From a virus, in the IMG/VR virus record IMGVR_UViG_3300050821_010655, positions 1-64,000 of that record: 64,000 nt of DNA. The stretch is one strand, 5' to 3'. Shown piece after piece: positions 4,012 through 20,384 of this stretch (the first letter of the stretch is position 1; each line of letters opens with the position of its first letter). The translations under genes and the position numbers were made by a program. The notes under the pieces were generated by a model that did not search any database, had not been told where the DNA came from, and saw only the letters and a program-made list of their open reading frames with translations.

Positions 4012-4412
4012 TGAAAACCACCCCACCCAACCAATACCGCCGCCGAGGGATCGAAATGGGACGCTGGTATTCCGACGATAGTTACGGCATGAACGGCGCG
4101 TTCTCCATACCGCTCAACGGCTTTGGGCACAAGGTGGTCGCCAACTGCATTGTGTCGGACGGACGATGTGAGGATGAAGCACCTGCCTTTGCTGGCTGGG
4201 AGCATGTGTCGGTCCATATGGTGGAGTTTGGGAAGCAGAAAACCCCAACGTGGGACCAGATGTGCGTGGTCAAAGATATGTTTTGGGAGCCGGAGGAATG
4301 TTGCGTGCAATATCACCCTGCTAAGTCTCAATACGTTTGCGATCACGATCATGTGCTTCACATCTGGAAATGGCGCGACGGCTTTCCGACGCCGCCAATA
4401 ATTCTTGTATGA
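4011..4412 (+). CDS. conserved phage protein (WEHVSV / PTW..MC..K..FW family)
   Basis: GWEHVSV, PTWDQMCVVKDMFW, QYHP and HVLHIW motifs common in phages. Confidence 0.75.
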   Translation: MKTTPPNQYRRRGIEMGRWYSDDSYGMNGAFSIPLNGFGHKVVANCIVSDGRCEDEAPAFAGWEHVSVHMVEFGKQKTPTWDQMCVVKDMFWEPEECCVQYHPAKSQYVCDHDHVLHIWKWRDGFPTPPIILV

Positions 4413-6121: not shown

Positions 6122-6535
6122 ATGAAAACCTACCTGACTGCCTTCCTGTTCGCCCTCGCCCTTCCCGCCCTCTCGCAACCCCTCCCCGGCTACCTCCAAC
6201 AAGCCAAGCGAGTGAGTGTCAGTGGCACGGTTACCGCCGTCAACGCCAGCCAAATTGTGGTGAGCAATGCCGTGACCAGCCTCAGCCAGGGATCGACCAC
6301 GACCTTCAGGCGGGTGAATGGCAGGCTAACTCCTGTGGAGGTGCCGGGAAGGCCGGTCGCGGTCACAACGCCGTGCTATACATATTTACGAGGTTACCCT
6401 GCTTGGACCCAGGTAAAGGTTGGCGACAAGATGAGCATCTCGGATTACTGCTATTTGGTCGGGGAGGGCGGGGGCGTACGAACTGTTCAGTACTGGGTGA
6501 CGACCAATGTGGTGCCGAGGAAGGTGTGGCGCTAA
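6122..6535 (+). CDS. secreted protein with signal peptide
   Basis: MKTYLTAFLFALALPALS-Q signal; last gene of the + arm, converging with the - arm. Confidence 0.65.
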   Translation: MKTYLTAFLFALALPALSQPLPGYLQQAKRVSVSGTVTAVNASQIVVSNAVTSLSQGSTTTFRRVNGRLTPVEVPGRPVAVTTPCYTYLRGYPAWTQVKVGDKMSISDYCYLVGEGGGVRTVQYWVTTNVVPRKVWR

Positions 6536-6996
6536 CCGCCATTCAGCCCAAGCGTAGCCTTAGCCAAGTCCAGCACCCAAAGGGCGTCCGCCTGATCGTG
6601 GCTCTCAATCTGAACCTTGGGCCATTTCTTCCTTGCCGCCGAAATCATCTTGTCCTTATTGGCGTTGCCTTTGCCAGTCGCCTGCTTCTTTACCTCGCTG
6701 GGTGAGAACCCGCGATATTCAATATGGTTGTCCTCGGCCCATAACTTTATTACTCCCTGAATTTCACTTTGAACCACTAGCGCACCGGCTGTCATTGGTC
6801 CTGAAAATCGGGCTGCTTCAAAGACACACAGTTCAAATGGACAGTCTTTAAGCAATTCGGTGAGCTTGCCCCTCAATCGAATCAACTTCATTCCCTTGGA
6901 CTCATCTCGACGAGTGGATAGATCCCAAGTGCCAGAGATGCCGCAGGAGTGGGCGAAACCGCAGTGAGTTGCAGGGTCAAGAGCTAATATATTCAC
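6532..6996 (-). CDS. RuvC-like Holliday junction resolvase
   Basis: ILALDPA, VFE, PSEVKKQATGKGNANK, HDQADAL. Confidence 0.85.
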   Translation of the reverse strand: MNILALDPATHCGFAHSCGISGTWDLSTRRDESKGMKLIRLRGKLTELLKDCPFELCVFEAARFSGPMTAGALVVQSEIQGVIKLWAEDNHIEYRGFSPSEVKKQATGKGNANKDKMISAARKKWPKVQIESHDQADALWVLDLAKATLGLNGG

Positions 6997-7202
6997 TTGC
7001 CGTTCGCCTTCTTCTTAATCTGGTTTTGCAATCGTTGATACTTCGCTTTCCACTTCCGATGGTACGCACAAAACGACGTGTGTTCATCCTGCGGTTTGCC
7101 GCAAAGAATGCACCCGCCCTTAGCCTTCTGCCGCAACTGCCACCTGGCTTGGCGGGAAATCTTAAGGTCGCTGAACTCATCTTTAATTTGCGTCGTAGCC
7201 AT
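6993..7202 (-). CDS. small zinc-finger protein
   Basis: CILCG...CAYH; start re-placed at ATG 7202 just downstream of a promoter. Confidence 0.55.
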   Translation of the reverse strand: MATTQIKDEFSDLKISRQARWQLRQKAKGGCILCGKPQDEHTSFCAYHRKWKAKYQRLQNQIKKKANGK

Positions 7203-7208
7203 GTGGTT

Positions 7209-7238
7209 AAGATAACAGGAAGTCAAGCATGGAGTCAA
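7209..7238 (-). promoter_or_regulatory. promoter TTGACT-N18-TATCTT giving a near-leaderless transcript
   Basis: Minus strand TGTATTGACT...TGtTATCTT-aaccac-ATG. Confidence 0.55.
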
Positions 7239-7252
7239 TACAACTCTACGAT

Positions 7253-7738
7253 TTAAAACTGGTTCCACTTTCCATGTTCGCAAATCCATCCATGTTCTCG
7301 CGCTACTTGGGGAAAGGCATGAATTGCTCTATGTCCAATTTTACTAATTGCCCGCCAGCGCGTCTGGTCCATCAATAGTTTCCCAAGCCTGCCTGCGCTG
7401 TGATGAATCTCATTAAGTCGTTTGCTCTTTTTACGACCACTACTGTAAGTAAGCATTGCCTGCATCTCCTTGGGCAGTTGGTCAAATTTGGCAAACACCG
7501 GACACGTCTCGCCTCGTGCTCTCGCTGCTTTCACAAATGACCTAGCGGCTTCCCGATACTCAGCATTGATTGGCTTGCGCCGTCGGCTCTCTCGGGGAAT
7601 TCTTTTGGCTGCATGTTCTTTGGCGCGGCGTTCATTTGCCTCACGGGTAAGGATGGGAATAAATGGTTGAGGTTTCTTGTGTTTCATCTGAGTCCAAAGA
7701 GCAGGCTTACTCCTTTTGGTATAGCCATACAAACTCAC
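7253..7738 (-). CDS. degenerate HNH-like protein
   Basis: EIHHSAGRLG..L.D..RW.AI...GH..IH pattern with the Cys ligands eroded. Confidence 0.5.
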   Translation of the reverse strand: MSLYGYTKRSKPALWTQMKHKKPQPFIPILTREANERRAKEHAAKRIPRESRRRKPINAEYREAARSFVKAARARGETCPVFAKFDQLPKEMQAMLTYSSGRKKSKRLNEIHHSAGRLGKLLMDQTRWRAISKIGHRAIHAFPQVAREHGWICEHGKWNQF

Positions 7739-7959
7739 TTCCTACGCCCCTTCTTCATTGGAGCCATATACTCCACCACCCTGACCTCGCGCCCGCGCTT
7801 GTCTCTCCAAAACTTGCAATGTTCCTCAACCTTGCCGTGATACTGGGCATGGCGCGGACCGGCCAGGACGCCCCGCTCGGTCCACTGGCAGATGAAGGTT
7901 TGCTTGCCCGCTTTGTCTGGGGACGACTGAAGGGTGAGGGTGACGGTGTTTGGGTTCAT
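7735..7959 (-). CDS. hypothetical protein
   Basis: Coupled overlaps on both sides. Confidence 0.5.
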   Translation of the reverse strand: MNPNTVTLTLQSSPDKAGKQTFICQWTERGVLAGPRHAQYHGKVEEHCKFWRDKRGREVRVVEYMAPMKKGRRK

Positions 7960-9585
7960 TGGGGTTTGCGAACGATCAAAACTTCCTCGTACTTGATACG
8001 TCTCTCATCGTCCTCAGACATCTTGGATTCATAAAGTCTGCGAAAGAACGAGGTCCGACTTTTCTTGGTTACAATCTCACCCCCACCCAACTCTAGTTCT
8101 CGTGTCTCCTTCACCAGCATGGCGTGGATGCGTTCGAGTGGGATAAAGCCAAGGTGGGTCAGGAGTTTGAGGGAGTCATCAACGAGACGCACCCGCTTGC
8201 CCTTCTGACAGTAATCCTTCAGGACGATGGCCGCCACGCCACCGGGTTTAAGGGCGAGCATCATGCTGGAATAGACGGCACGCATGGCTTCCCAATAAGT
8301 TTCACCCTTTTGGTTTCCAATATTCTCCCGGTTGGAAATATTATATTGCTCTGATTGCAGCTTGCCACCACTTCTTGCGCGTGGAGATTTTCCGGTCTTG
8401 CGAAACTGCTCGCCCTGCGATCCATCGTACGCTGCAACCGCCGTGCCTTCGTATGGTGGCGAAGTGGTAACTACGTCAACCGCCCCGCCTTTGAGGGTGC
8501 CAATTTGACCTTGGGTTTTGCCATAGGTTTCACTTCCTCGAAAACATCCACGTCCCTGCTTGTGATTTTGATCCCGCCGGCGGGTCTTGCCGTCGTCGCT
8601 CATCAAATAATCGCTCTTGGAATTTGCAGCGTAGGGCGGGCTTGTGATCGCCCCATCCACCACGCCCTCCCTCAGCCGCGCTATCTGCCCCGCACTCTCG
8701 CCATACCTTTGATCGGTCTGTTGGCTCGCGCTGTCGGCGCTCCGACCGCCCTGCTGACCGGCTTTCTTGGGCGGCTTAGTATTGAGTCCACCCGCGCCGG
8801 TCGCGATGGTGGCGTAGGGTGGGGAGGTAATTGCCGCCGAAACATTGCCTGACTTCAGCTCGCCTATTTGTCCAGAGGTTTTGCCATACTTGGCGGTCAA
8901 CCCACGACGCCCAACAATGTCTTTGCCCTCCTTGCCCCAGTTGTCTTTGTTGACGCTGCCCAACGATGGACTACCGCCCGCGTCGGCGTATGGAGGCGAT
9001 GTGATGGCGCTGTCGATGGAACCGGATTTCAGTTTTCCTATCTGTCCACTGGTAGTTCCATAAATCTCTTTTCCTTTGCAAGACTTGTCCATCCGACCGC
9101 CGCTTCCGGCAAGTATCTGTTTAGATGGTTTAACATTGAGCGAGTCAACAAATGGTGGGCTAGTGCAAATCCCTGCCGCTTGCGCTACCAATTCGTAGAA
9201 ATGACGACTATCGCCCAAAATCATCTGAGGATGGGGGCAACCCAACCGCTCCAATTTGTATCGGTGCAGTTCAAAATTAGCCTTGGACAAATCGAAGAAG
9301 TTTTTTTCGAGTTCAACCCCTACCCAGCGTATCCCACGGTAAGATGCTACTATTCCTCCGAGGCCGACGCCGCCGAAAGGATCACAACATAGTTCACCAC
9401 GCTTCAACCACCCTTTTTCCAAAAGATGGTCAAAGATTCTTTCGATTAAACCGCGTGCAAATTTGGCAGGGTAGCTAATGTGCGAAGGCTCCAGGCACAA
9501 TAAGAGACTTCCAACTGTCGTTATAACAGTTCTCCCATGTTTCCTGAAGCACTTCGCGCTCCTTTTGGTTTTTGATTTTTGTCAT
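7956..9585 (-). CDS. amino (N4-C/N6-A) DNA methyltransferase with five TSPP(Y/F) cassettes; frame interrupted by 7 nt at 9471-9477
   Basis: Motif I DPFGGVG; five TSPP(Y/F); LKPGG; a 36-codon 5' ORF (9475-9585) ends ...AFAH-TAG and the main frame resumes PAK. Confidence 0.8.
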
Positions 9586-10175
9586 TTAGCTAAAGCTTCC
9601 AATTCTTCCTTAATGTCCTTGCCATTTATACCAAACCCTAGACTCACCCAGCCTTCGACCTTCTGCCTTGCGAATAACTCCACCCTCGGCAGGTCGCCCA
9701 TGAGTTGGACTATGCGGGTGCGCGTCTCAGGCGGCTTCTCGCTGTGCTTGCCGATGGGGGCGTAGATGATCTGCTGAACGGCGTTGCTCACACGCTTGGG
9801 CTTGCCCTTGACTGCCAGTAAACAAGGTTCTGAGTTCCCACGACACCATCGACCGAGGCCGTAGAAGGTGTCAATGGCATCTTCGGGTAGGAAACGGTAC
9901 TGATCCGTCTCTGCCCGCTTGTTCGCCTTCACCCAAAGGAAGGCGCAACTGACGAAACGAAATGACCAACTTTTAATCACCTCCAACGCCTCGGGCAGCA
10001 GGGGCCAGGTCGCCCACAAGAACAACACCGAATCAGCAGCCGCAATATCCGCCACCGGCAGCGCCTTTAACTGCGCCACGCTCATGGTCGGATACTGCTT
10101 GGCTGCCGCTCCGTTGCAACCTGCGTCACGATAAGCCCATGGCGCGTCTGAATAGATGATTTGAAACTTACTCAC
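9582..10175 (-). CDS. MT-A70 family adenine methyltransferase
   Basis: IYSDAPW, YPTM, LFLWAT, HSEKP, ELFARQ..GW. Confidence 0.9.
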   Translation of the reverse strand: MSKFQIIYSDAPWAYRDAGCNGAAAKQYPTMSVAQLKALPVADIAAADSVLFLWATWPLLPEALEVIKSWSFRFVSCAFLWVKANKRAETDQYRFLPEDAIDTFYGLGRWCRGNSEPCLLAVKGKPKRVSNAVQQIIYAPIGKHSEKPPETRTRIVQLMGDLPRVELFARQKVEGWVSLGFGINGKDIKEELEALAK

Positions 10176-10609
10176 GCCGTTGCCGGTTCGGACTCGGGCG
10201 CTGCCTCGGGCGATTCTTCGGCAGGGGTTGCCTTCTTGGGCTTGCTCGCCTTCTTGGATTTCTTAGGTGCCGCCTTCTTGGTAGGCTTTGCTTTGGGCTT
10301 CCGTTCCGCCCTAGGTTCGTCCACAGGCTCAGGTACACTGTTCTTCAACTCCCGCACTTGCTCTTGAGTGATTGGCGCGGCAGGACGGGTCTTGCTCTTG
10401 CCCAACTGCGCCTGCACGTCAATGGAGTGGTCAGGCATCTTGATCTTCTGGTCCTTCACGATGAGGCGGATATGGCGGTTGGACAAGCCCTCCAGTCCCA
10501 GACGGCGAATGACCGCCGTAACAGGAAATCCGAATATATCTCCTAGTTTGCCTTTGCGGGGCTTAACCTCGCCGTTTCTGCTTACTTTCTTTTTGGTTTT
10601 TGTGCTCAT
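10172..10609 (-). CDS. basic protein with K/A/P-rich histone-like tail, possibly DNA-binding
   Basis: KPKAKPTKKAAPKKSKKASKPKK. Confidence 0.55.
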   Translation of the reverse strand: MSTKTKKKVSRNGEVKPRKGKLGDIFGFPVTAVIRRLGLEGLSNRHIRLIVKDQKIKMPDHSIDVQAQLGKSKTRPAAPITQEQVRELKNSVPEPVDEPRAERKPKAKPTKKAAPKKSKKASKPKKATPAEESPEAAPESEPATA

Positions 10610-10648
10610 GCTTTTTGTGTTTTTTTTGTTTGTTGTTTAACTGAAGAT

Positions 10649-10927
10649 TTATTCGACCGCCACCACCCGAACGCTCTCGCCATGACCGGGGATGATCCTG
10701 ATATGGCAAACCCGGCTATCATCGTTCTCCCACTCCACGGCGTCCATTTGAATGTCGATCACGTCCGCCAGGGTCACGGCGGCGGGCAAAGGCGGATAGT
10801 GGTTCTCCACCATGCGGCACCACGAGTTGCGGGTCGCCCCTATCAGGATCTTGCGGCACTTGCGCTGGCCGCAACTCAGTTCGGCAATGGTCCAGCACTC
10901 ACGGAGGGTAGGTTGAGTGTTGCTCAT
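10649..10927 (-). CDS. hypothetical protein
   Basis: ATGA coupling. Confidence 0.5.
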   Translation of the reverse strand: MSNTQPTLRECWTIAELSCGQRKCRKILIGATRNSWCRMVENHYPPLPAAVTLADVIDIQMDAVEWENDDSRVCHIRIIPGHGESVRVVAVE

Positions 10928-11208
10928 CCTGCATAGCCTTTCCTGAGCATCCGATACCGCTCTTTGTGGCGCTGCCTATCCTTCTCCAGCTTCCAACATT
11001 TCTTGCACCGCTTCATCTCCGACCGCTTGCAACCCCGTTCCTCAAGCATGTGACCGCACTCTAGGGTTAGCTCGAAATGACCTTGCCCGAATGGCTGAGA
11101 TTTGCCCTGAAACAACATGCGGCTCACCACCCGCCGCCAAGGGTAACGGCGAGCGGCAATCAGCTTGGGGTTGAGATGGGGGGTCTTGCGATAGTCGTGG
11201 TCAGGCAT
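10924..11208 (-). CDS. zinc-binding hypothetical protein
   Basis: LECGH...RCKKC; GAGGA RBS before ATG 11208. Confidence 0.55.
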   Translation of the reverse strand: MPDHDYRKTPHLNPKLIAARRYPWRRVVSRMLFQGKSQPFGQGHFELTLECGHMLEERGCKRSEMKRCKKCWKLEKDRQRHKERYRMLRKGYAG

Positions 11209-11794
11209 ACTTATCCTCAAACTTTTGCCATCCATCTAAAATCTCCTCAAACGCCTCTTCATTGCGCCCCACCTCAATCATGTTGAACGTCCCGCTCTTG
11301 CTGTCGAACACTACAAAGTGACAGCACTCGGCCCCCGCACACATAAGTTGGTGCTGGACCTGCATATAGTAGAAGGGTTCGACCTCTCCATTTTCAGAGT
11401 GGGTCCAGGTATGTCCGTTCTTGCCGGAAAATGGGCTTTTCACCTCAAGCACAATTTTGCGGTCTTTGCTCCACCCATCAAGACTGGCCATGAATAGCCC
11501 ACGAGTAACACAAGCAGGCTTCATTGTTCTCCCATGCTTTTGCTCGTACGCCTTGCGGGCAATCGGCTCATTATCGTGTCCGTGCTGGGTGGCTTTGTTG
11601 CCAACTCGGAGCGGCGGGTTAGCCCCATACTTCTCAATCGCAAGTTGCCCCGGCGTCACCCACGGTGATAAGCCTAATACTGCTGGCGTTTCCGAGGCTG
11701 TGCGGTAGGACTTGCGGACCTTCAACCACTTGGCTGAGTTCTGTTCCAGCCGCAGCACCTTGAGCGGCAGGCGCAGGAGTTGGGGGACGGTCAT
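11201..11794 (-). CDS. YqaJ / lambda-exonuclease family nuclease
   Basis: W...R...TASE...LG.SPW, GH..E, ASLDG, EVK, Y..QVQHQL. Confidence 0.9.
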   Translation of the reverse strand: MTVPQLLRLPLKVLRLEQNSAKWLKVRKSYRTASETPAVLGLSPWVTPGQLAIEKYGANPPLRVGNKATQHGHDNEPIARKAYEQKHGRTMKPACVTRGLFMASLDGWSKDRKIVLEVKSPFSGKNGHTWTHSENGEVEPFYYMQVQHQLMCAGAECCHFVVFDSKSGTFNMIEVGRNEEAFEEILDGWQKFEDKYA

Positions 11795-12042
11795 GGGATT
11801 TTCCTTATATCCGGTCCCAGTAAATCATCGGGATATGTTTCCGGCATTGGCTCTTGTGGCGGGCGCGTGTCGTACACCGGATGGCCGTCAGGCAGGCAGT
11901 GGCAGCAGTGCAGTTCGTAACTACCCGGACCCACCAACAGTCCGTCAAACTCGTTGCAGAAATGCCAGCCTTGCGCAATCTCCTGCTCGGTCAAGTTAAG
12001 GTCGTCGCAGTCCATCAGGAGTTTCCAGCGAGTGTTAGTCAT
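11791..12042 (-). CDS. hypothetical protein
   Basis: GWHFC.EFDGLL.GP motif; coupled. Confidence 0.55.
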   Translation of the reverse strand: MTNTRWKLLMDCDDLNLTEQEIAQGWHFCNEFDGLLVGPGSYELHCCHCLPDGHPVYDTRPPQEPMPETYPDDLLGPDIRKIP

Positions 12043-12057
12043 GGGGCTTTTCCAATT

Positions 12058-13776
12058 TCATTGGAAAAATTCGTCGCTGGCCTTCATTGGCTGTCCTCGG
12101 GTAATCAACTCCAGAGTGCGCAACTTGGATAGCGCGTTATTAAACCCACCGCTGTTAGCGGAATAGCCAGTTGCTTGTGCCACTGATTCGACAGTCTGAC
12201 CATTGGGATAATTTTCAATTAAAAAGGAGAGTATTCCACGCTCACATTTGCCCAGTCGCCCAATCCAGTGTCGCGCAAGTTCCTGTCCAGTCGGCAACGG
12301 CTCCCATTCTCCTAACGCTGATTGACCTTGTTGTGTTATTGTCACGGGTTGTCCGCGTGAAATATACTCAACTGATCTGAGCTTGCTCAGCGAGTTGTTG
12401 AATCCCCCTGAGTTCACGCTGTAACCTGAAAGGATGGCAATTTGATTTGTGTTCCGGCCTTGCGGGTATTGCGCTAATGCCGTCAGGATCGAGCGTTCGC
12501 ATTTCCCTAAATGGACCTCGCCATTAGATTGCGCGTGCGTCGCTGGCTTGTTAATCCGGATTAGAACTTTTGATTGGACCAAGGGTTGTGACTTAACTGT
12601 GTGAGTTTGTGGCGTTTTTAACCCTCGCAAAATTCCAATCACTAAATCCGTGTCCTTCTCCAAGTCATCCAGTCGGCGCTCGAAAAAGCCTCGCTGTTCT
12701 TGTAATTCAGAACATGCGGTTTCCAGTCTGCCAGTAAGCCGATTAATTGTGTCCTCGTTGCCTTTGCTTAGGATGGGAATTTCCCTAATTTCTGATGGCA
12801 AGAAGGATTTTTCAACAGTTGTTGGTTTTGAAAGCTGTCGCCTTAACTCCAAGATGGTTTTCTTCAGTTCACGCGGATCATTAGCCTTCTGTTCCTCAAT
12901 CACCACTGCTAATTTGGATTTTACCGCCTCCAAATCCACGCTGGCCCAACCTTCACTGGCAACCTTCTTCTGTAACTGAGGAGGTGCAAAAGAATCGAAT
13001 GTCATAAACATCGGAAAACTTAATCGCTTGGGTCCAAATCCAATCTCTGGCGACCAGACAAATGCTTCACCGCGAGCCATTCCTGCCAATGAATTCAATA
13101 CCTCTTTTCCTTGATCCATATCACCACAACCCTCGATCCAGTCCTGCACGGCGTCACGGTCGCTCTTGTGAATCACGCGCATGGCTACCAAGGTTTCACA
13201 GGAAGTCAGGGTGTCATTATGAACTTTCTGGGGACGCTGACTGGCAATAAGGCAGACAATACCCAAGCCGCGCCCTTCTGCCATTAATCTATTTGACCAG
13301 TGAAGGCACTTGCCTGATTCAGGGTCCATTATTTTACCCTTGGGTGCGAAATTATGAAACTCGTCACCTATCAGGTAAAGTTCACCACTGTTTGCATTAA
13401 AAATACCTGCCGCAAAGTCGATCCAAAACCGTACCATGTACGAAGTCATCCAACCTCGAAATCCGATAATGCAAGGACGATTTCCGCTGGTGATTAATTC
13501 CGAGACGTGCTTGCCTGAAGTCTCGTTGATAGGAACGTCTGATGCCTTAGCCTCTTTGAAGTCCCCAAATGCAATAATCGGAAAACCAGCACCCTTGCCA
13601 TTAGCAGATGATTTAAGACCCCACCAGTCGCCTTTCGGGTCAATAATACAGACTCTTTTCCCGTGCGCCAAAAGATGCTCAACGATATGACGTAGAGCAG
13701 ATGACTTCCCCGCTCCGGTTTTACCCAAAACAACCAAATGTTGGTCGAGTATCTTAGATGGAAATATCAAACTCAT
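12058..13776 (-). CDS. HerA/FtsK-like (DUF87-type) ATPase with duplicated C-terminal winged-helix units
   Basis: HLVVLGKTGAGKS, IIDPKGDW, DEFHNFAP, GRGLG, SQRPQKV; two LGKCER...SGGFNN.LSKLR repeats. Confidence 0.85.
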   Translation of the reverse strand: MSLIFPSKILDQHLVVLGKTGAGKSSALRHIVEHLLAHGKRVCIIDPKGDWWGLKSSANGKGAGFPIIAFGDFKEAKASDVPINETSGKHVSELITSGNRPCIIGFRGWMTSYMVRFWIDFAAGIFNANSGELYLIGDEFHNFAPKGKIMDPESGKCLHWSNRLMAEGRGLGIVCLIASQRPQKVHNDTLTSCETLVAMRVIHKSDRDAVQDWIEGCGDMDQGKEVLNSLAGMARGEAFVWSPEIGFGPKRLSFPMFMTFDSFAPPQLQKKVASEGWASVDLEAVKSKLAVVIEEQKANDPRELKKTILELRRQLSKPTTVEKSFLPSEIREIPILSKGNEDTINRLTGRLETACSELQEQRGFFERRLDDLEKDTDLVIGILRGLKTPQTHTVKSQPLVQSKVLIRINKPATHAQSNGEVHLGKCERSILTALAQYPQGRNTNQIAILSGYSVNSGGFNNSLSKLRSVEYISRGQPVTITQQGQSALGEWEPLPTGQELARHWIGRLGKCERGILSFLIENYPNGQTVESVAQATGYSANSGGFNNALSKLRTLELITRGQPMKASDEFFQ

Positions 13777-14156
13777 TCATCCTCCTTGCGCCCGCCATTC
13801 ACCCGCCGCTTCTCGCGCACCCGGCGCTGAATCTCACGCCTCGCCCACGCGACGAGTGCCATTTCGGAAGGTTGGAACAGAGCGTGGTGTTTGCCAAGCC
13901 TGTCTTTCAACTCCTGCTTGGCCCAGTAGAGATACGAGCGAACGATGTGCTTGCACGTTGATTCTCTCAGTGATCGCCCGCCCCTGCGCCGATTTGGATT
14001 CTTGACCTTCTCGTAATCGGCACAAACGCAGCCAGCCATTCCACCATGCGCCTCCAGATCCACCAAATAGGGCGGCAAGCCCAAGGTATCGCTCGGGCAG
14101 TGAAACCGATAAGGTTCGCCCGCGATGGGCTTGGGGAGTTTGGAGCGGCGCGGCAT
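13773..14156 (-). CDS. SWIM zinc-finger protein
   Basis: CVCADY...CKHI. Confidence 0.65.
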   Translation of the reverse strand: MPRRSKLPKPIAGEPYRFHCPSDTLGLPPYLVDLEAHGGMAGCVCADYEKVKNPNRRRGGRSLRESTCKHIVRSYLYWAKQELKDRLGKHHALFQPSEMALVAWARREIQRRVREKRRVNGGRKEDE

Positions 14157-14159
14157 GGC

Positions 14160-14474
14160 TTAGTCGGACACTTCACGAACGTGAATCCAGTGATAATCAG
14201 ACGGAGGTGGGTTCAGTGGTTTTCTACATGGACCACCGATTACTTCACCATTTTTTAATGATTCCATGATCCACCATTCTCTTGGTTTAGGCTTGATGCG
14301 ATATTCATAATTGCTTTGAGAAAAATCAACTATCCAATCTTTCTGAATATCTGTCCACTTGGTGTGGTTGAAATTTTTAGATTGAATTTCCTCACCATTC
14401 GCAAATGCCTGAATTACCGGCAGCAACTCCTTGGCTCGCTCACATGTCATAAGATTAGTAGGGATCGCGTTCAT
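14160..14474 (-). CDS. conserved phage hypothetical protein
   Basis: LLPVIQAFANGEEIQ...EYRIKP motif. Confidence 0.65.
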   Translation of the reverse strand: MNAIPTNLMTCERAKELLPVIQAFANGEEIQSKNFNHTKWTDIQKDWIVDFSQSNYEYRIKPKPREWWIMESLKNGEVIGGPCRKPLNPPPSDYHWIHVREVSD

Positions 14475-14937
14475 CCGCCCGCCGCTTTCTGCGTGAAGAT
14501 AGGCGTTCCCTCCTACTTAGCCGCTCATCCTCACGCGGGCGACGGCGAGGCTCATCGCGATCACGCTGGCGGGGGCGATCCTCAGACTCGCCGTTGTCCT
14601 TGCCCTTGCCACCAATGAATTGAAATTGTTCCACCACTACTTTGAAGGCGCGGCGTTCTTCGCCTGATTTCTTGTCCTCCCATTTGTCCTCCTGTAACCG
14701 CCCCTCAAAATAACCGGGATCTCCCTTCTTTTGATACTCAGCCAGAGTTTCCGCCGCTTTATCCCAAACTACCAATGGAATAAAAATGGCCTCTTCCTTG
14801 GTGTCGCCATTGCCATCTTTCCACTTGCGATTGACCGCCAGCGAGTTGTTTCCAACTGCCGTGCCCTTACCTGTAAACCTAATCTCCCAATTCCTTGCGA
14901 GATTGCCCAAAAGAATCACTCTGCATACGCCAGTCAT
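14455..14937 (-). CDS. ssb: single-stranded DNA-binding protein
   Basis: VILLGNL, LAVNRKW, VVWDKAAE, KKGD...EGRLQ...WEDK. Confidence 0.9.
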   Translation of the reverse strand: MTGVCRVILLGNLARNWEIRFTGKGTAVGNNSLAVNRKWKDGNGDTKEEAIFIPLVVWDKAAETLAEYQKKGDPGYFEGRLQEDKWEDKKSGEERRAFKVVVEQFQFIGGKGKDNGESEDRPRQRDRDEPRRRPREDERLSRRERLSSRRKRRADERDPY

Positions 14938-14961
14938 AATTAATTCCCTTTCGTTCTGTGG

Positions 14962-15396
14962 TTAATCCTCCGACGCCCCGGCATGCACTCGCGGCGGCTC
15001 CTCGACTTCCGGCTCGGGTTCGATTCCCGGCAGTTCCTTCTGGTCGGGGTCCGGGCAATCACTCTCGGCCTTCATCTTCTTGCGCTTGGCCCCATACCCG
15101 CCGCTTACTTTGACCGTGGGCGGCGTGACGCTACGATCCGACTGCCACGCCCAAGCCACCGCCAGTTTATCTTCATTGGCGCTCGCCACCTTGTTGATGG
15201 CGTCCCAATTCTCAACCACCAGCCCAGTTTGGAGTCTCAGGATAACCGCCATCTCCATCTGCCTCCACTCACTCTCTTCGTCAGGCAGGAGCGCCCGCAC
15301 GACCGAGAGCCAGAATTGAATAGACTCGGGGTTTATGCCGTTGGATTCGGGTTGTGATTTTGCCGGTTTGGATTTCTTGTTTTTCTTTGTGCTCAT
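14962..15396 (-). CDS. hypothetical protein with acidic C-terminus and QKELP (clamp-binding-like) motif
   Basis: Start re-placed at MSTKK (15396). Confidence 0.55.
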   Translation of the reverse strand: MSTKKNKKSKPAKSQPESNGINPESIQFWLSVVRALLPDEESEWRQMEMAVILRLQTGLVVENWDAINKVASANEDKLAVAWAWQSDRSVTPPTVKVSGGYGAKRKKMKAESDCPDPDQKELPGIEPEPEVEEPPRVHAGASED

Positions 15397-15410
15397 AGTT
15401 TGTGGATTTA

Positions 15411-15533
15411 CTACATCGGAATTGTACAAGTGACTTTGTATTTTGTTTTACCGGGTAATTTATATGTGATGGATTTCGCGAAAGCTTTAGATGTTTTTTG
15501 CTTTCGTTTTGTGGTCTTTTTCTTTGTGCTCAT
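15411..15533 (-). CDS. 40-aa very basic peptide (not in ORF track)
   Basis: MSTKKKTTKRKQKTSKAFAKSITYKLPGKTKYKVTCTIPM; GAAAGG RBS; directly behind a promoter. Confidence 0.5.
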   Translation of the reverse strand: MSTKKKTTKRKQKTSKAFAKSITYKLPGKTKYKVTCTIPM

Positions 15534-15558
15534 GTGTGCCTTTCTTTTATGTGGTTTC

Positions 15559-15588
15559 ACTATGCCCCATCGCGGGACCACCTGTCAA
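15559..15588 (-). promoter_or_regulatory. promoter TTGACA-N18-CATAGT
   Basis: Minus strand ATGTATTGACA...CATAGT in an intergenic gap. Confidence 0.55.
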
Positions 15589-15603
15589 TACATGAATTAC
15601 AAT

Positions 15604-17400
15604 TTAATCATCCGGGTATGCCCGCGCCCTGGTCGCCTTGCGCTGGCGCACCTGCGGCGGGGGTGCTGGAATGTCGGCGGGGTCGATCTTGGGTCGCTCG
15701 GTGATCATCATGCGCGAGCCGTCAAAGTTGAAATCGGTTTCCAACCCGCTCTTACCTTTGGTCATTTTCAAAATCCTGCTGTGGATAATCTGCCAGTTCT
15801 TCTCGTCCCGCCAAAAACCCAGCATGAATCCCGAACTGGATTCAATCTCGCCCGCCTCTTTGGCTGAATGAAGTCCAATCGCTTTCTCACCTTCCTTGGG
15901 TCGGGCTACCTGGCTAGTCACAATCACGATCACGTTGCGCTCTTTAGCCAACACCTTTATGTCCTCTGCAATTTGGGCGATCCGCTCGCGCCTGCCATCA
16001 CCCTTGCCTTTGACCAACTGCACGTAATCTATGCCTACCACTTTGGGTCGTTCGCCAATCTTCAACTCGCTGCGGCAAATATAATCGTCAATCTGTTCGA
16101 TGGTCAGCCTCGATTTGGTGCAAACATAAAGATTGTTGAACTCCTCACGCAATGCCGCCTCTCCAATGTGCCTGCCTTCGACATACTGGCGCTCCACATC
16201 GATGCACATCATTTGTCGGCGCATGGCCACAAACCGCTCAAACATTAAATCGTCGGGAAGTTCCAACTCAAACAAAACGGTAGGCATGGGAATAGCCGAA
16301 ACGAAGATGGCCTGCGTTAGCGCGGTCTTGCAACTGCCGGTATCTCCAACCAACGTCATCACCTCTCCCGGCACCAACGGACGCACCTGCCCCCTCCATG
16401 ACGGGATCATTTTAGACAGGTCCAGCGAGTAGTCAGCCAGCATGGTGGCATGGCGGGCGTAGTTCCTCTCCAACTCCCAAACCCCATAAATAGGCAGCTC
16501 CTTGCCTTTTATAAGGGGTGGTGCGGCCCCCACAATGGCTTCCAGCGAGTTTTTAGCCTCTTGGGGGGTCTTGAACGTGGCTATGTAATCAGACACGTCC
16601 TTAACCGATTTGGGGAGGTGCAGGATTTTGACCACCTTTGCCTTGTCTGCCACCGAATCAAAGACTTGCCGGACGTGCTTCTGCCCCGGCTCGTCGTTGT
16701 CGCCGCAGATTATGATTTCCTTGCCTTCCAAGTGCTCGGAATAGCTGTCCAGCCACTTGCCTGCTCCACCTACATTGGTGGTCGCCACAAACCCCAAACC
16801 AACCAAACTGTCACAATCGCGCTCGCCTTCGGCTACAATGACCGTTGGGCTTTGATTCACTTCAGGGAGGTGGTACAAAACCCTCTCCACATTTTGCATG
16901 CTCCAGACCCACCTGTCGTCCTCGCGGTGGCGCTGACGGAAGTCTTTGGGTTTGTATCGCACCACCTGATAAACCTCCAACCCAAACACATCCTGATACG
17001 AATAAATCTTTTCAATGTTGGAATCTTCTTCCTCTGGCGGTTTGATCTTGGTGCGGGGCGTGAACAACGATTTGATTTCAGGCTTAACCTTGGGCTTTAA
17101 CTTCTCGACCGCCCGCCTGAAGAACCCTCGCGGCTCGCCATTGCCAATCTCGTGCTTCACGCAAAAATCATGGGGCGAGATATTATCCAACTTGCACAAC
17201 AGGTCGATCACACTGCCGCCACCGCAACCGGCGTAGCAGGTCCAAAGTTGTTTACTGATAGTAACGCAGAAAGAAGGCTTTCTATCGGCGTGCATCGGAC
17301 AGCGAGCCATTCGCTCATTGCCGCTGCCAATCAATTTAATCCCCCGCTCGGCGCAGACCTGCTCGATGGGGTGGCGGGAGATGAAGTCCTCTCGCATCAC
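15604..17400 (-). CDS. primase-helicase (CHC2 zinc finger + TOPRIM + DnaB-like helicase)
   Basis: CPMHADRKPSF...CYAGC; AEGERD, DNDEPG, DVSDY; GDTGSCKT, FELE, IDYVQL, SQ. Confidence 0.9.
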   Translation of the reverse strand: MMREDFISRHPIEQVCAERGIKLIGSGNERMARCPMHADRKPSFCVTISKQLWTCYAGCGGGSVIDLLCKLDNISPHDFCVKHEIGNGEPRGFFRRAVEKLKPKVKPEIKSLFTPRTKIKPPEEEDSNIEKIYSYQDVFGLEVYQVVRYKPKDFRQRHREDDRWVWSMQNVERVLYHLPEVNQSPTVIVAEGERDCDSLVGLGFVATTNVGGAGKWLDSYSEHLEGKEIIICGDNDEPGQKHVRQVFDSVADKAKVVKILHLPKSVKDVSDYIATFKTPQEAKNSLEAIVGAAPPLIKGKELPIYGVWELERNYARHATMLADYSLDLSKMIPSWRGQVRPLVPGEVMTLVGDTGSCKTALTQAIFVSAIPMPTVLFELELPDDLMFERFVAMRRQMMCIDVERQYVEGRHIGEAALREEFNNLYVCTKSRLTIEQIDDYICRSELKIGERPKVVGIDYVQLVKGKGDGRRERIAQIAEDIKVLAKERNVIVIVTSQVARPKEGEKAIGLHSAKEAGEIESSSGFMLGFWRDEKNWQIIHSRILKMTKGKSGLETDFNFDGSRMMITERPKIDPADIPAPPPQVRQRKATRARAYPDD

Positions 17401-17609
17401 ACCCTGTATTTCTCCCACTCTTTCTTGGGCAGCTTTTGCCATTGCTCAACCATTTTCCAGAATCCAGTTGGGATTGTCTTGATCGGATCGAGCGTGCGCT
17501 TGTGGACTGGTATGGGACCGCAGAAGTAATGCCACTCAAAAGTGAATCCTTGGAATCGGTAGATGTCGGTAAGGGTTACAATGCCGCCGCCAAAATGAAC
17601 GCAGGACAT
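17397..17609 (-). CDS. hypothetical protein
   Basis: Coupled; FEWHYFCGP motif. Confidence 0.55.
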   Translation of the reverse strand: MSCVHFGGGIVTLTDIYRFQGFTFEWHYFCGPIPVHKRTLDPIKTIPTGFWKMVEQWQKLPKKEWEKYRV

Positions 17610-17610
17610 A

Positions 17611-17883
17611 TTATTTCAAATCTCCAATGCACCGCAGGATGCGCTCCTGCAAATCCTCCAACTTCCACTTGTCCAACTCGTCGCAAAACTTAGTGCCGAT
17701 ATAGGAACGGGCGTAGTAGATTTGGCGCAGGAGAAGAGTGGCTTCCCCTAACGCACTCTGAGCTTGTGCCCAGTTGGATTTAACGGTTTCGATGGCATCT
17801 CTAAATCGCTTGCGGCTTTCAGGTGTGTCGTACTCCGATTTGGCTCTCCGTAACTCCATCACTGTTTCGTAAAAATCGGTCAT
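17611..17883 (-). CDS. hypothetical protein
   Basis: Tight operon packing. Confidence 0.5.
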   Translation of the reverse strand: MTDFYETVMELRRAKSEYDTPESRKRFRDAIETVKSNWAQAQSALGEATLLLRQIYYARSYIGTKFCDELDKWKLEDLQERILRCIGDLK

Positions 17884-17884
17884 A

Positions 17885-18127
17885 TCATTCCAAGTCTATT
17901 GGTTTAGATAAAAGCCCTTCTTTAATTCTTGCAGCAACTTTCTTGGCGCATTTCAAGCACATATCTCTGCCTACACTGGAAGAAAACCCTGCGCTTCTAA
18001 AATTTGCCAGCACTGTATGAGTGGCTTCGCAGTCGCCGCAATCAACGCACAGTCGTTCCCGTAGTGTAATAACTTCAACATCATCGGCAACAAACTGGAT
18101 TTCTGGATATGGAATTTTATTTTTCAT
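17885..18127 (-). CDS. small zinc-finger protein
   Basis: CVDC/CGDC...CLKC; GGAG RBS before ATG 18127. Confidence 0.5.
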   Translation of the reverse strand: MKNKIPYPEIQFVADDVEVITLRERLCVDCGDCEATHTVLANFRSAGFSSSVGRDMCLKCAKKVAARIKEGLLSKPIDLE

Positions 18128-18552
18128 ATATTCTCCCCCCGCAACGCCTCGCGCTGACGGCGCGAACCCACGATAGGATCGTTGAATCGCTCTTGGTGAA
18201 AATAAGTCGCCGCGTGCGGGCAGTAGCGCAGTTCTTCGGCATCTGCGTTCTTCCACGCCTCGGCAAACTTGCTCACTTGATTAGACAAGTCGTTGGCATT
18301 GTATTTCTTCATTGCCGCTATGATCGCCCGCAGGGCAGCAGGACGAGCACACTTGCGCGGATAAATACTATATATCTTCAACGCCTGCGCTTCCAGTTTT
18401 GGATTTGAATGTCCTTCTTTTACTTTCAACTCCCTCTCAAGATACTTGGCTAGGTAGGCGCAAATGGCGTCCCAACACCGCTCGGCGTTCTTGAGCATTG
18501 ATCGGTCAATATCAATGCGCTGGAGTGCCTTGTAGATTTGTTTCTCGGTCAT
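18124..18552 (-). CDS. protein resembling the C-terminal domain of phage replication initiators
   Basis: IY..YPRK..R..A...CPHAATYFHQERFND. Confidence 0.6.
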   Translation of the reverse strand: MTEKQIYKALQRIDIDRSMLKNAERCWDAICAYLAKYLERELKVKEGHSNPKLEAQALKIYSIYPRKCARPAALRAIIAAMKKYNANDLSNQVSKFAEAWKNADAEELRYCPHAATYFHQERFNDPIVGSRRQREALRGENI

Positions 18553-18555
18553 AAA

Positions 18556-20166
18556 TCACACCTTGATAATGTTCATCTCACGCGCCTGAACGCCGTAGGG
18601 TTCGGCTTCATTATCGACCAATAAAAATTGTGATAAGGTTCCGTCCTTGACCAACTCCAGCAGCCGCCGCACAATCGCCTGCCGCTTGTTGCCCGTCCGT
18701 TGCATCTCGTCAAAGATTAGGATTTTGGCGGGACTGTTCTGGCAGAGCGAGATTTGCAGGCCGGCATAGACCAGCAGTTTTTCAGTCCCGCTAAAGACCT
18801 CGTGGGCAATCCACCGCCCGACCGGCGCGTCCATTCCCATTTTGCGATCCTGCTCGCTCACCCGCCGTCCAAAGTCTCCGTCCTTGTATTCCAGTGGCGA
18901 GTTCAAAATGCCGTCCGTGAACTTGCGGGCGATCTTGAGCAGCGTGCCAAATGCCTTCTCGGCCAACGACTGTTGGTGTTTCTCAAGTTGGGCTTTCATG
19001 TGCTTGATCACCACCTGCTCGGCCTCGGCTTGTCCAATCTTTTCTTTGGCTTTTGTCACCGCTTCTTTGTTCTGTTGGTGGGCGGTCCATTGGGTGTGCT
19101 GCTTGTCCAACAGATCAAACTTCTCCCATGCCTCATCCTTTGCCTTTTCAAGTTTCTTTGCCTGCGGGTCGTGCGGCTTCTTGTCAAACGCCGCCAGTTT
19201 GTTCTTGGCGTCGCCCAACGCCTTGCGAGTGCCCACTAAGTCAGCTTCCACTTCTTTGCGGTTTGCGTTTTTCATTTTCAACCATGCCTTCCGCCAGTCT
19301 GTTCCTTCATTCAGACAAGTCGGGCAACGGTCGAATTTCTTCATGCGGGTGATCTCACCATCAATCTCATCAATATCGTCCTTGGCTTCCCGCACCTTCT
19401 TTTCCGCCGCGTCAACCGCTACCGCCAGTTCATTGCGCTTGGTATCCTTGGGGATTGCCGCCGCCAAATCTGCCGCTTGAGATGCCTGCCGCGCTTTCTC
19501 ACGCTCGGCGCTCACGTCCTTAGGTTCGTCCTGTGTTTTGAACGCGCTTACGACTGCCGATTGAGTTTTAATTGTGTCCTTGGCTTCCTTGTCAGCCGTT
19601 TCAAGCTGGGCCATCAGGGTTTTCATCCACAGGCAAATATTCTGTTTCTGCTTATTGCGCCACTCTATTCCTTTCATCAATAAGTCATACCACTTCCTGA
19701 TCGCCACTTCGTTTCCGTTCTCGGGTAATTGCATGTCCTTGAGCAATTCACTTTCGTCATATCCCATCTTTTTCAAATCCACCCGTTCCAGCACGTAGGC
19801 CAGTTGGCGCTGCCCCGTCAGTTTGAAATACTCGTTAATGTCCATCATCACGTCAGGGAATCCAACTTGCAGGTCCATGCTCTTGCTATACCGCCCGTCG
19901 CTGTCGCGGCTGATCGTCACGCTATTGGTCATGCCGTTGTCAAAGGTCAGGCGGCAAAACAATTCCTTGTCGTCCGAACAAGGCTTGAATGTCGCGCTGT
20001 GCTCTTTACCTAGCGAGGCGATAACGCCATACATGCCTAATCTCAAGGCGCTGCCGATGGCGCTCTTGCCAGAAAACGGGTTGCCTACTATGAGGTTGGC
20101 CGATTGAAGACTGAGTTTGAGGTTGCGCCCCTGCCAAGAGGGGCATTTAAGTTCGGTAATGGTCAC
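18556..20166 (-). CDS. SMC/Rad50-like ABC ATPase with coiled coil and zinc hook
   Basis: GNPFSGKS, central CPTC, FSGTEK signature, ILIFDE; GTG start at 20166 after GAAAGGA. Confidence 0.85.
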   Translation of the reverse strand: MTITELKCPSWQGRNLKLSLQSANLIVGNPFSGKSAIGSALRLGMYGVIASLGKEHSATFKPCSDDKELFCRLTFDNGMTNSVTISRDSDGRYSKSMDLQVGFPDVMMDINEYFKLTGQRQLAYVLERVDLKKMGYDESELLKDMQLPENGNEVAIRKWYDLLMKGIEWRNKQKQNICLWMKTLMAQLETADKEAKDTIKTQSAVVSAFKTQDEPKDVSAEREKARQASQAADLAAAIPKDTKRNELAVAVDAAEKKVREAKDDIDEIDGEITRMKKFDRCPTCLNEGTDWRKAWLKMKNANRKEVEADLVGTRKALGDAKNKLAAFDKKPHDPQAKKLEKAKDEAWEKFDLLDKQHTQWTAHQQNKEAVTKAKEKIGQAEAEQVVIKHMKAQLEKHQQSLAEKAFGTLLKIARKFTDGILNSPLEYKDGDFGRRVSEQDRKMGMDAPVGRWIAHEVFSGTEKLLVYAGLQISLCQNSPAKILIFDEMQRTGNKRQAIVRRLLELVKDGTLSQFLLVDNEAEPYGVQAREMNIIKV

Positions 20167-20384
20167 TGCGGTCCTTTCGTTTTGTGGTTTGCGACGAATT
20201 GAGCAACGGCCCAACGCCGCTCAAATTGTTCTTTATAATGACCTGACAGTTCCGGGAGATAAGGAACCGCCTTCGACGCGGCAGCACAACTTCCGCAAGT
20301 GCATTCAATGGAATGCACCGAAACTTCACAGCACAGCCACATGGCAGCTTCGGTCAGCACTTTAAGTTTGTCATCTGTGTTCAT
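20163..20384 (-). CDS. small Cys-rich protein
   Basis: GTGA overlap with the SMC-like gene; CTCGSC. Confidence 0.5.
   Translation of the reverse strand: MNTDDKLKVLTEAAMWLCCEVSVHSIECTCGSCAAASKAVPYLPELSGHYKEQFERRWAVAQFVANHKTKGPQ

Follow-up and report, generated by a model that had tools for sequence, protein, structure and literature searches.

A predicted viral methyltransferase with five tandem motif IV cassettes and its multi-cassette family in uncultured phages

The methyltransferase gene and its five cassettes

We analysed a window of 64,000 nucleotides (nt) of viral DNA from a soil phage, comprising positions 1 to 64,000 of IMG/VR virus record IMGVR_UViG_3300050821_010655 (76,696 bp, linear, about 64% complete). 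The subject of this study is a gene on the minus strand of the window that is predicted to encode a methyltransferase with five tandem catalytic-loop cassettes. Its main open frame spans 7956..9500 (-), with 514 codons from a TTG at 9500 and the stop at 7956-7958. The protein translated from this frame (514 amino acids, P0001) matched PF01555 with 49.7 bits, against a cut-off of 26.7, and had >1,000 homologues.

Motif I, DPFGGVG, forms the single S-adenosylmethionine (SAM)-binding loop and lies at 9363..9383 (-), residues 40-46. Five SPP[YF] motifs were located at residues 114, 168, 226, 287, and 347. The first copy of motif IV reads TSPPF (nt 9164-9150 (-)), and copies 2-5 read TSPPY (nt 9002-8988, 8828-8814, 8645-8631, and 8465-8451, all (-)), with spacings of 162, 174, 183, and 180 nt. 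An earlier note on this DNA had described one SAM motif and five motif IV copies, and both were found in place. When P0001 was shuffled 200,000 times, one SPP[YF] appeared in 1,068 shuffles, two in 2, and three or more in none.

A cassette unit consists of a beta4-like strand, SPP[YFWH], a loop of ~38 residues, and the element YG.t.GQIG. Cassette 1 (9018..9179 (-), residues 108-161) has the strand AAGICT, SPPF, a loop of type 21 (loop types are defined below), and YGTTSGQIG, and occupied the beta4 slot in the AlphaFold2 model of P0001. The next three cassettes all carry SPPY: cassette 2 (8844..9017 (-), residues 162-219) has a type 10 loop (..GSPSLGSVNKDNWG..), cassette 3 (8661..8843 (-), residues 220-280) a type 0 loop (..GAGGLNTKP.KK.GQQ.GR..), and cassette 4 (8481..8660 (-), residues 281-340) a type 8 loop (..DDGKTRRRDQ..GRGCFRGSETYG). 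Cassette 5 (8307..8480 (-), residues 341-398), with SPPY and a rare loop type, runs directly into helix alphaD and is followed by the C-terminal Rossmann half (7959..8306 (-); GETYW..KPGG..KSRTSFFRRL..). The linker YG.(T/S).GQI(G/A).L(K/R).G stands ahead of each of copies 2-5, and the linker after copy 5 is degenerate (Y....ENIG) and runs into ETYW. The basic, glycine-rich loops of the earlier note were present, but their basicity was mild only (K+R 11-17%, G 12-19%).

The 25-residue frameworks ahead of copies 2-5 (YG.T.GQIG.LK.G.V...ITSPPY) had 14-19 of 25 residues in common between copies, 8-13 of which were encoded by different codons. At the nucleotide level these frameworks were 53-63% identical with a longest common exact run of 12 nt, and Tandem Repeats Finder reported no tandem repeat in this DNA. 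On these grounds the five repeats appear to be old and kept at the protein level, in line with the earlier note, which had called them old and maintained. A DNA tandem repeat or fast recombination switch was rejected on the same data, and given the low identity of the DNA copies no fast switching is expected within the genome.

A viral family with exchangeable cassettes

P0001 belongs to a large, unstudied and almost purely viral family, of which the multi-cassette layout is a trait. A word-indexed search retrieved 1,177 relatives of P0001, and when 1.84 billion cluster representatives were scanned exhaustively with HMMER, 2,421 passed E <= 1e-3 and 977 passed E <= 1e-30. The members come nearly all from uncultured tailed phages, and look-alike Atlas clusters were 76-100% viral. 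Single-protein patterns for close relatives of P0001 gave none in IMG/VR or GTDB genomes; alignment-based scans gave 57 and 8 loci, the relatives in IMG/VR being encoded on 57 contigs of 4-116 kb. Relatives were also found on contigs of metagenome-assembled genomes labelled Planctomycetota, Desulfobacterales, Chloroflexota, Nitrospirota, Gammaproteobacteria, and Binatia. NCBIfam holds no curated model for this family, and a literature search found no paper on tandem motif IV or multi-SPPY methyltransferases.

The family consensus is W.GCYD.SWKG.I...FAHPAKF..LIERI.DH...GD.VGDPFGG.G...ELE...QGDSR.F for the N-terminal half and, after n cassettes, GETYW.AM..VY...KPGG...VKDY...ERKSFFRRL...EEVL for the C-terminal half. 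The earlier note had proposed that cassette number and order be compared across homologues. The 310 relatives retrieved had between 1 and 11 SPP[YFWH] motifs per protein, with a mode of 4 (two motifs in 16 proteins, three in 66, four in 110, five in 67, six in 24, and 7-11 in 25); the copies in this wider set were located by the SPP[YFWH] search, and their Ser is thus true by definition. Motif IV spacing had a median of 59 residues, with 90% of spacings at 49-77.

To define loop types, 1,022 cassettes were cut at SPPx and the loop parts were clustered by BLASTP and Louvain community detection. This yielded 262 communities, 22 of them with at least 7 members, and the largest with 120, 73, 66, 46, 39, and 38. 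The commonest, with 120 of the 1,022 cassettes, is type 0; a search for short single-cassette proteins with a type 0 loop gave fragments only. Loop types were found at first, middle and last positions alike, and 235 proteins displayed 216 distinct architectures. Both orders of one pair were seen, type 2 followed by type 0 (n = 31) and type 0 followed by type 2 (n = 11). In one sub-lineage two proteins were without exactly one cassette, and the break fell inside the framework, between YG and GQIG. Recombination between linkers, which the earlier note had suggested as a means of reshuffling specificity, is thus supported over evolutionary time by this precise one-cassette indel, but not as a switch within this genome, where the linkers are too dissimilar in DNA.

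Within a type, loop identity was 0.33-0.65 as compared to 0.47-0.60 for the catalytic halves of the same protein pairs, and the two were weakly correlated. Neutral disordered spacers were rejected as an explanation of the loops, as conservation within types equals that of the catalytic core. The same type occurred twice in a protein 20 times, against an expectation of 58.6 +/- 6.2 (minimum 39 in 1,000 shuffles), a statistic that is not a clean probability because the proteins are kin. The aromatic residue of motif IV followed the loop type: W in 67 of 73 cassettes of type 1, F in 56 of 66 of type 2, F in all of types 12, 16, and 21, and Y in all of types 0, 4, 6, and 8.

In an alignment of 33 five-cassette homologues (A1; 24-49% identical to P0001), S-P-P did not vary in any of the five copies. 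The residues at strand positions -6, -3, and -2 were hydrophobic in 92-100% of copies, whether first, middle or last, and the information content of later copies (2.0-3.1 bits) was not lower than that of first copies (1.4-2.9 bits). Judged by these sequences, every copy is selected both as a strand and as a catalytic motif. We also considered whether the repeat unit contains a copy of motif III, with the linker GQIG.L..G corresponding to the motif III/alphaC context of the first copy (GDSR.F). This idea found no support: a hidden Markov model of first-copy contexts scored a median of 2.2 bits against middle copies and -1.2 bits against shuffled sequences.

Individual members showed further peculiarities. 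P0095 has a zinc-ribbon-like insert (CPxH..CPRC) within a cassette, and in P0121 one motif IV has decayed to SQPF. P0058 and P0067 carry about 200 additional residues just ahead of motif I (..GWIQPGE followed by SIKVTESIRNLIL..), perhaps an intein or the insertion of a homing endonuclease.

The interrupted start of the gene and its neighbourhood

The N-terminal 36 codons of the methyltransferase gene (M..WENCYNDSWKSLIVPGAFAH) lie in another frame at 9478..9585 (-), with the ATG at 9585. In homologues this segment is fused in frame (W.GCYD.SWKG.I....FAHPAKF). Here, a 7-nt insert, TAGCTAC (9471..9477 (-)), brings a TAG stop and splits the invariant motif between AH and PAKF, and a full-length protein in this phage would require passage over positions 9471-9477. 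An assembly artefact was rejected, as the Logan assembly of the probable source run contained identical insert bases at a depth of 23.7, although it derives from the same data and is not fully independent.

The HPAK insert spot could be scored in about 35 other loci, three of which contained a stop-carrying insert at the same F.HPAK position: L037 (5 nt, 4067-4071), L042 (7 nt, 4061-4067), and L044 (6 nt, 4064-4069). At each of the four insert loci a stop codon comes immediately after the last sense codon, and where the frame resumes, the preceding triplet matches that codon at positions 2-3 (CAT/TAC, CCG/ACG, CAC/GAC, and CCG/CCG). From their sequences the inserts look like short translational hops over a stop, of +5, +6 or +7. 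With frameshifting or readthrough, the invariant motif would gain two residues. Separately, in four further homologues, P0059, P0189, P0217, and P0235, the gene calls begin right after HPAK.

The window gene might instead be a recently inactivated pseudogene, with cassettes that are functionless in this phage. The stop and frameshift do fall within an invariant motif, two assemblies of one data set agree that the insert is real, and no stimulatory RNA hairpin was found at the insert in any of the four loci (z-scores +0.9, +0.5, +1.0, and -1.5). We nevertheless consider inactivation unlikely, if not remotely so: the remaining 514 codons are fully open, and the occurrence of 5-7-nt stop-containing inserts in three distant loci, at the identical spot and with matching landing triplets, is unlike random decay.

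An MT-A70-family methyltransferase gene (9582..10175 (-)) adjoins the N-terminal open reading frame, whose ATG overlaps the MT-A70 TGA stop (ATGA, window 9582-9585 (-)). This overlap suggests translational coupling of the two methylase genes, as far as sequence can tell. Of 66 other loci, just 2 had MT-A70 next to the gene, and the family showed no conserved partner gene across the 66. In the window, the stretch 6532-20214 (-) forms a replication/recombination module with genes for a RuvC-like protein, a YqaJ recombinase, a HerA/DUF87-like ATPase, a single-stranded DNA-binding protein, and a primase-DnaB helicase. No restriction partner was identified among the neighbour genes scanned.

Predicted fold, class and competing explanations

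In the AlphaFold2 model of P0001, built from the 33-sequence alignment, the predicted local distance difference test score (pLDDT) was >90 for residues 20-110 and 400-514, including the C-terminal Rossmann half, and <50 for residues 120-397; the strand of the first copy (residues 108-113) lay within the sheet. P0197, a natural two-cassette protein with an intact N-terminus, was modelled from a 116-sequence alignment with both loop types in register and reached a pLDDT of 81.9 and a predicted template modelling score of 0.73. Copy 1 was again in the core, the second strand had a pLDDT <50, and the type 1 loop formed two helices (pLDDT 73-85).

For structure superposition the low-confidence insert was trimmed from both models. 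The best matches were TrmN, Trm14, and Trm11, with Z scores of 20.0, 19.5, and 19.3 for P0001 and 18.2, 18.6, and 17.9 for P0197. The root-mean-square deviation was 2.1-2.9 A over 164-175 aligned residues that span both halves, at 13-22% identity. Since the trimmed models superpose on class-I methyltransferases over both halves, we infer one complete Rossmann core; in these models the cassettes as an array are inserted after beta4/motif IV and before helix alphaD. With the whole model, Foldseek aligned the N-terminal half only.

Amino-methyltransferases are textbook single-active-site enzymes with specificity in a separate domain. Residues 10-73 match positions 162-220 of PF01555, the end of the model with the motif I part, and residues 341-355 of cassette 5 weakly match positions 1-15 (E 0.15). 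As the N-terminal part matches the end of the model and the last cassette weakly its start, the linear motif order is the reverse of the beta-class. The beta-class order IV ... target recognition domain (TRD) ... X-I-II-III is absent, with motif I at residue 40 and the first motif IV at residue 114, and in place of the single (D/N/S)PP(Y/F/W) motif IV of the PF01555 class there are five. The gamma-class order X-I-II-III-IV-V-VIII within one Rossmann fold is present in the modelled core; the C-terminal TRD of M.TaqI-type enzymes is missing, the ~115 residues after alphaD holding beta5-beta7 only. P0001 had no PF01170 match at E <= 1 and leaves no room for a THUMP domain. PF01555 was its sole Pfam match, and the C5-cytosine catalytic domain PF00145 was not found. 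All five motif IV copies carry the Ser typical of N4-cytosine (N4C) methyltransferases.

SPPY is the motif of most N4C methyltransferases, in which Ser or Tyr to Ala substitutions abolish formation of N4-methylcytosine (m4C) (PMC8885841). The product of P0001 is probably m4C in DNA, by analogy, a view favoured by the Ser in motif IV of all five copies. In CcrM, Loop-2B (residues 31-61) begins with DPPY, wraps around the flipped adenine, and reads bases G1, A2, and A3 of GANTC, with Arg44 contacting the guanine and Pro45 intercalating; in the subunit with an idle active site, part of Loop-2B is disordered (PMC6787082). By analogy, the cassette is the counterpart of Loop-2B plus the preceding strand: CcrM-type enzymes likewise have (D/S)PPY followed by a base-reading loop of ~30 residues that is disordered off DNA, which leads us to expect low loop pLDDT in models without DNA. 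CcrM (6PBD) and TTHA0409 (2ZIE) also share the FxGxG of the motif I region (phmmer E 0.0096 and 0.017, weak alone), and TTHA0409 has a Y...GQ(I/L)G element ahead of alphaD. Unlike CcrM and the beta-class, P0001 has motif I before motif IV and five copies of motif IV instead of one, and it lacks both a TRD between motifs VIII and X and a C-terminal DNA-binding domain.

Two further systems offer parallels. Work from the Trautner laboratory reportedly established multispecific C5-cytosine methyltransferases in Bacillus phages (M.SPRI, M.Phi3TI, M.Rho11sI, and M.H2I), orphan enzymes said to combine one core with tandem specificity modules of ~40-60 residues and to act against several host restriction enzymes. 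The present family likewise has one core and tandem modules that are exchangeable between relatives. The Bacillus phage enzymes differ in their C5 chemistry (PC/ENV motifs) and in modules that lie between motifs VIII and IX without a catalytic motif, whereas here each module has its own motif IV and beta4-like strand, and there are up to 11 modules of at least 22 types. The Loh laboratory is said to have engineered alternate frame folding, in which a duplicated segment lets one fold be completed in either of two mutually exclusive ways; those proteins were designed with two states, while here we infer 2-11 alternatives in a natural enzyme.

We hypothesize that the gene encodes a multispecific orphan phage amino-methyltransferase in which each cassette confers a single specificity and strand choice operates, an overall explanation that we hold tentatively and at slightly less than even confidence. 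A single class-I Rossmann core would have its SAM-binding half at the N-terminus, the beta5-beta7 half at the C-terminus, and the cassettes between them. Each cassette would supply one target specificity, one enzyme would mark several sequence contexts, and the phage would thereby escape several host restriction systems; an anti-restriction role fits an orphan phage enzyme. Multispecificity itself, with one catalytic-plus-recognition loop per sequence context, appears about evenly balanced. Strand choice, that is, mutually exclusive insertion into the beta4 slot, is our favoured account of how the cassettes share the core but is more doubtful. A later SPPx would reach the cofactor only if its own strand filled the central beta4 slot. 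The C-terminal half would be made after all cassettes, and the fold would then close around the strand of one cassette while the remaining cassettes loop out on the DNA-facing side, giving a mixed population of molecules as in alternate frame folding. Any cassette could complete the fold in this manner, because the C-terminal half is synthesised last and the two junctions are both on the substrate face. In its most extended form, the proposal is one of natural alternate frame folding in which the core closes around any of 2-11 cassettes to give a mixture of methyltransferases, with a code from loop type to target motif and with some members gated by a hop; this we regard as rather unlikely.

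Some relatives are permuted. P0227, P0240, P0243, and P0247 have the C-terminal half (V-VIII) first, followed by 3-5 cassettes and the N-terminal half (X-I-II-III), with consistent ends. They come from different sources, are 44-47% identical, and form the sole (4-member) sub-lineage with this order among the 310 relatives. Their order is neither the usual order of the family nor a simple circular permutation of it. The existence of this sub-lineage indicates that the array is handled as one unit, with the halves in either order. Since the first cassette is tied by 6-8 residues to beta7, the permuted order fits use of the first copy only and free choice alike.

Several observations weigh against the proposed multispecific enzyme with strand choice. 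The earlier note had suggested that alternative cassettes swap into one catalytic core; discrete exchangeable modules in hundreds of homologues and the base-reading counterpart in CcrM speak for it, but both AlphaFold2 models seated the first copy only as beta4, with later strands at pLDDT <50. The nearest solved folds are RNA N2-methylguanine (m2G) enzymes and not DNA enzymes. We know of no natural precedent for central-strand exchange in methyltransferases. The covalent link between GQIG of the last cassette and alphaD makes it harder to dock a middle cassette. Type 1 is biased to the last position (59 of 73) and its helices pack on the core in the model, which suggests a structural instead of an alternative-catalytic role for this type at least. 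Types can also be duplicated within a protein: seven of the 11 cassettes of P0211 are of type 6, which looks like a recent amplification. A tblastn search of 50,697 isolated phage genomes found no relative, and the window's own copy of the gene is interrupted.

Part of this evidence would be explained if the first cassette, next to helix alphaC, alone were catalytic and the others, derived from duplicated active-site loops, served as accessory fingers for DNA binding or processivity or as flexible spacers. Such an arrangement agrees with the placement of copy 1 alone in the core of both the five- and the two-cassette models, with Gly/polar-rich loops of low pLDDT, and with the permuted sub-lineage, where the first cassette is again the one on a short linker, to beta7. 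It leaves unexplained the S-P-P invariance and equal buried-strand conservation in every copy, the aromatics of later motif IV copies that track loop type, and the presence of the same loop types at first and later positions. Low pLDDT is in any case expected for a Loop-2B-like element off DNA, and we find it rather unlikely that the first cassette acts alone.

Two further alternatives to a multispecific DNA methyltransferase are improbable. One is that the substrate is not DNA cytosine but RNA (e.g. tRNA or rRNA guanine-N2) or another amino group, with cassettes that select RNA targets. Trm14, TrmN, and Trm11 were the best structural neighbours (Z 17.7-20 vs. at most 16.6-19.3 for generic enzymes), these PF01170 enzymes share the linear order of motif I followed by (D/N)PPY, and many homologues have precomputed PF01170 or PF03602 matches, some being named Trm11 or RsmD by their sources. 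The margin over generic class-I enzymes is, however, only 1-2 in Z; those RNA enzymes have a single motif IV, P0001 has no THUMP or other RNA-binding domain and matches PF01555 only, its motif IV Ser is as in N4C methyltransferases, and the gene lies in a phage replication/recombination module beside an MT-A70 methylase. A separate repeat domain of stacked strand-loop units for DNA wrapping or host-protein binding, with SPPx structural and non-catalytic, would suit the regular period and the single conserved strand and short helix-like GQI.L element of each unit, but no such domain was predicted even with the 116-sequence in-register alignment, neighbouring loops are wholly different in sequence and length, which is unusual for a solenoid, and SPP[YFW] is the catalytic motif of amino-methyltransferases.

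The multi-cassette enzymes are a new architectural variant of amino-methyltransferases and possibly an unprecedented way of sharing one core. A family of roughly at least 1,000 sequence clusters multiplies the catalytic loop itself and recombines loops like a parts kit, and the question of how modules share one catalytic centre becomes sharper because the buried strand travels with each module. The recurrent stop-containing mini-insert supplies a set of new natural candidates for short translational hops. If each cassette does confer one specificity, the architecture would offer a compact scaffold for programmable DNA methylation, and a dictionary from cassette to target motif, readable from long-read metagenome methylomes, could help to predict restriction barriers between phages and hosts. 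The family would then represent multispecific anti-restriction methylation invented independently for a second time, following the C5 enzymes of Bacillus phages.

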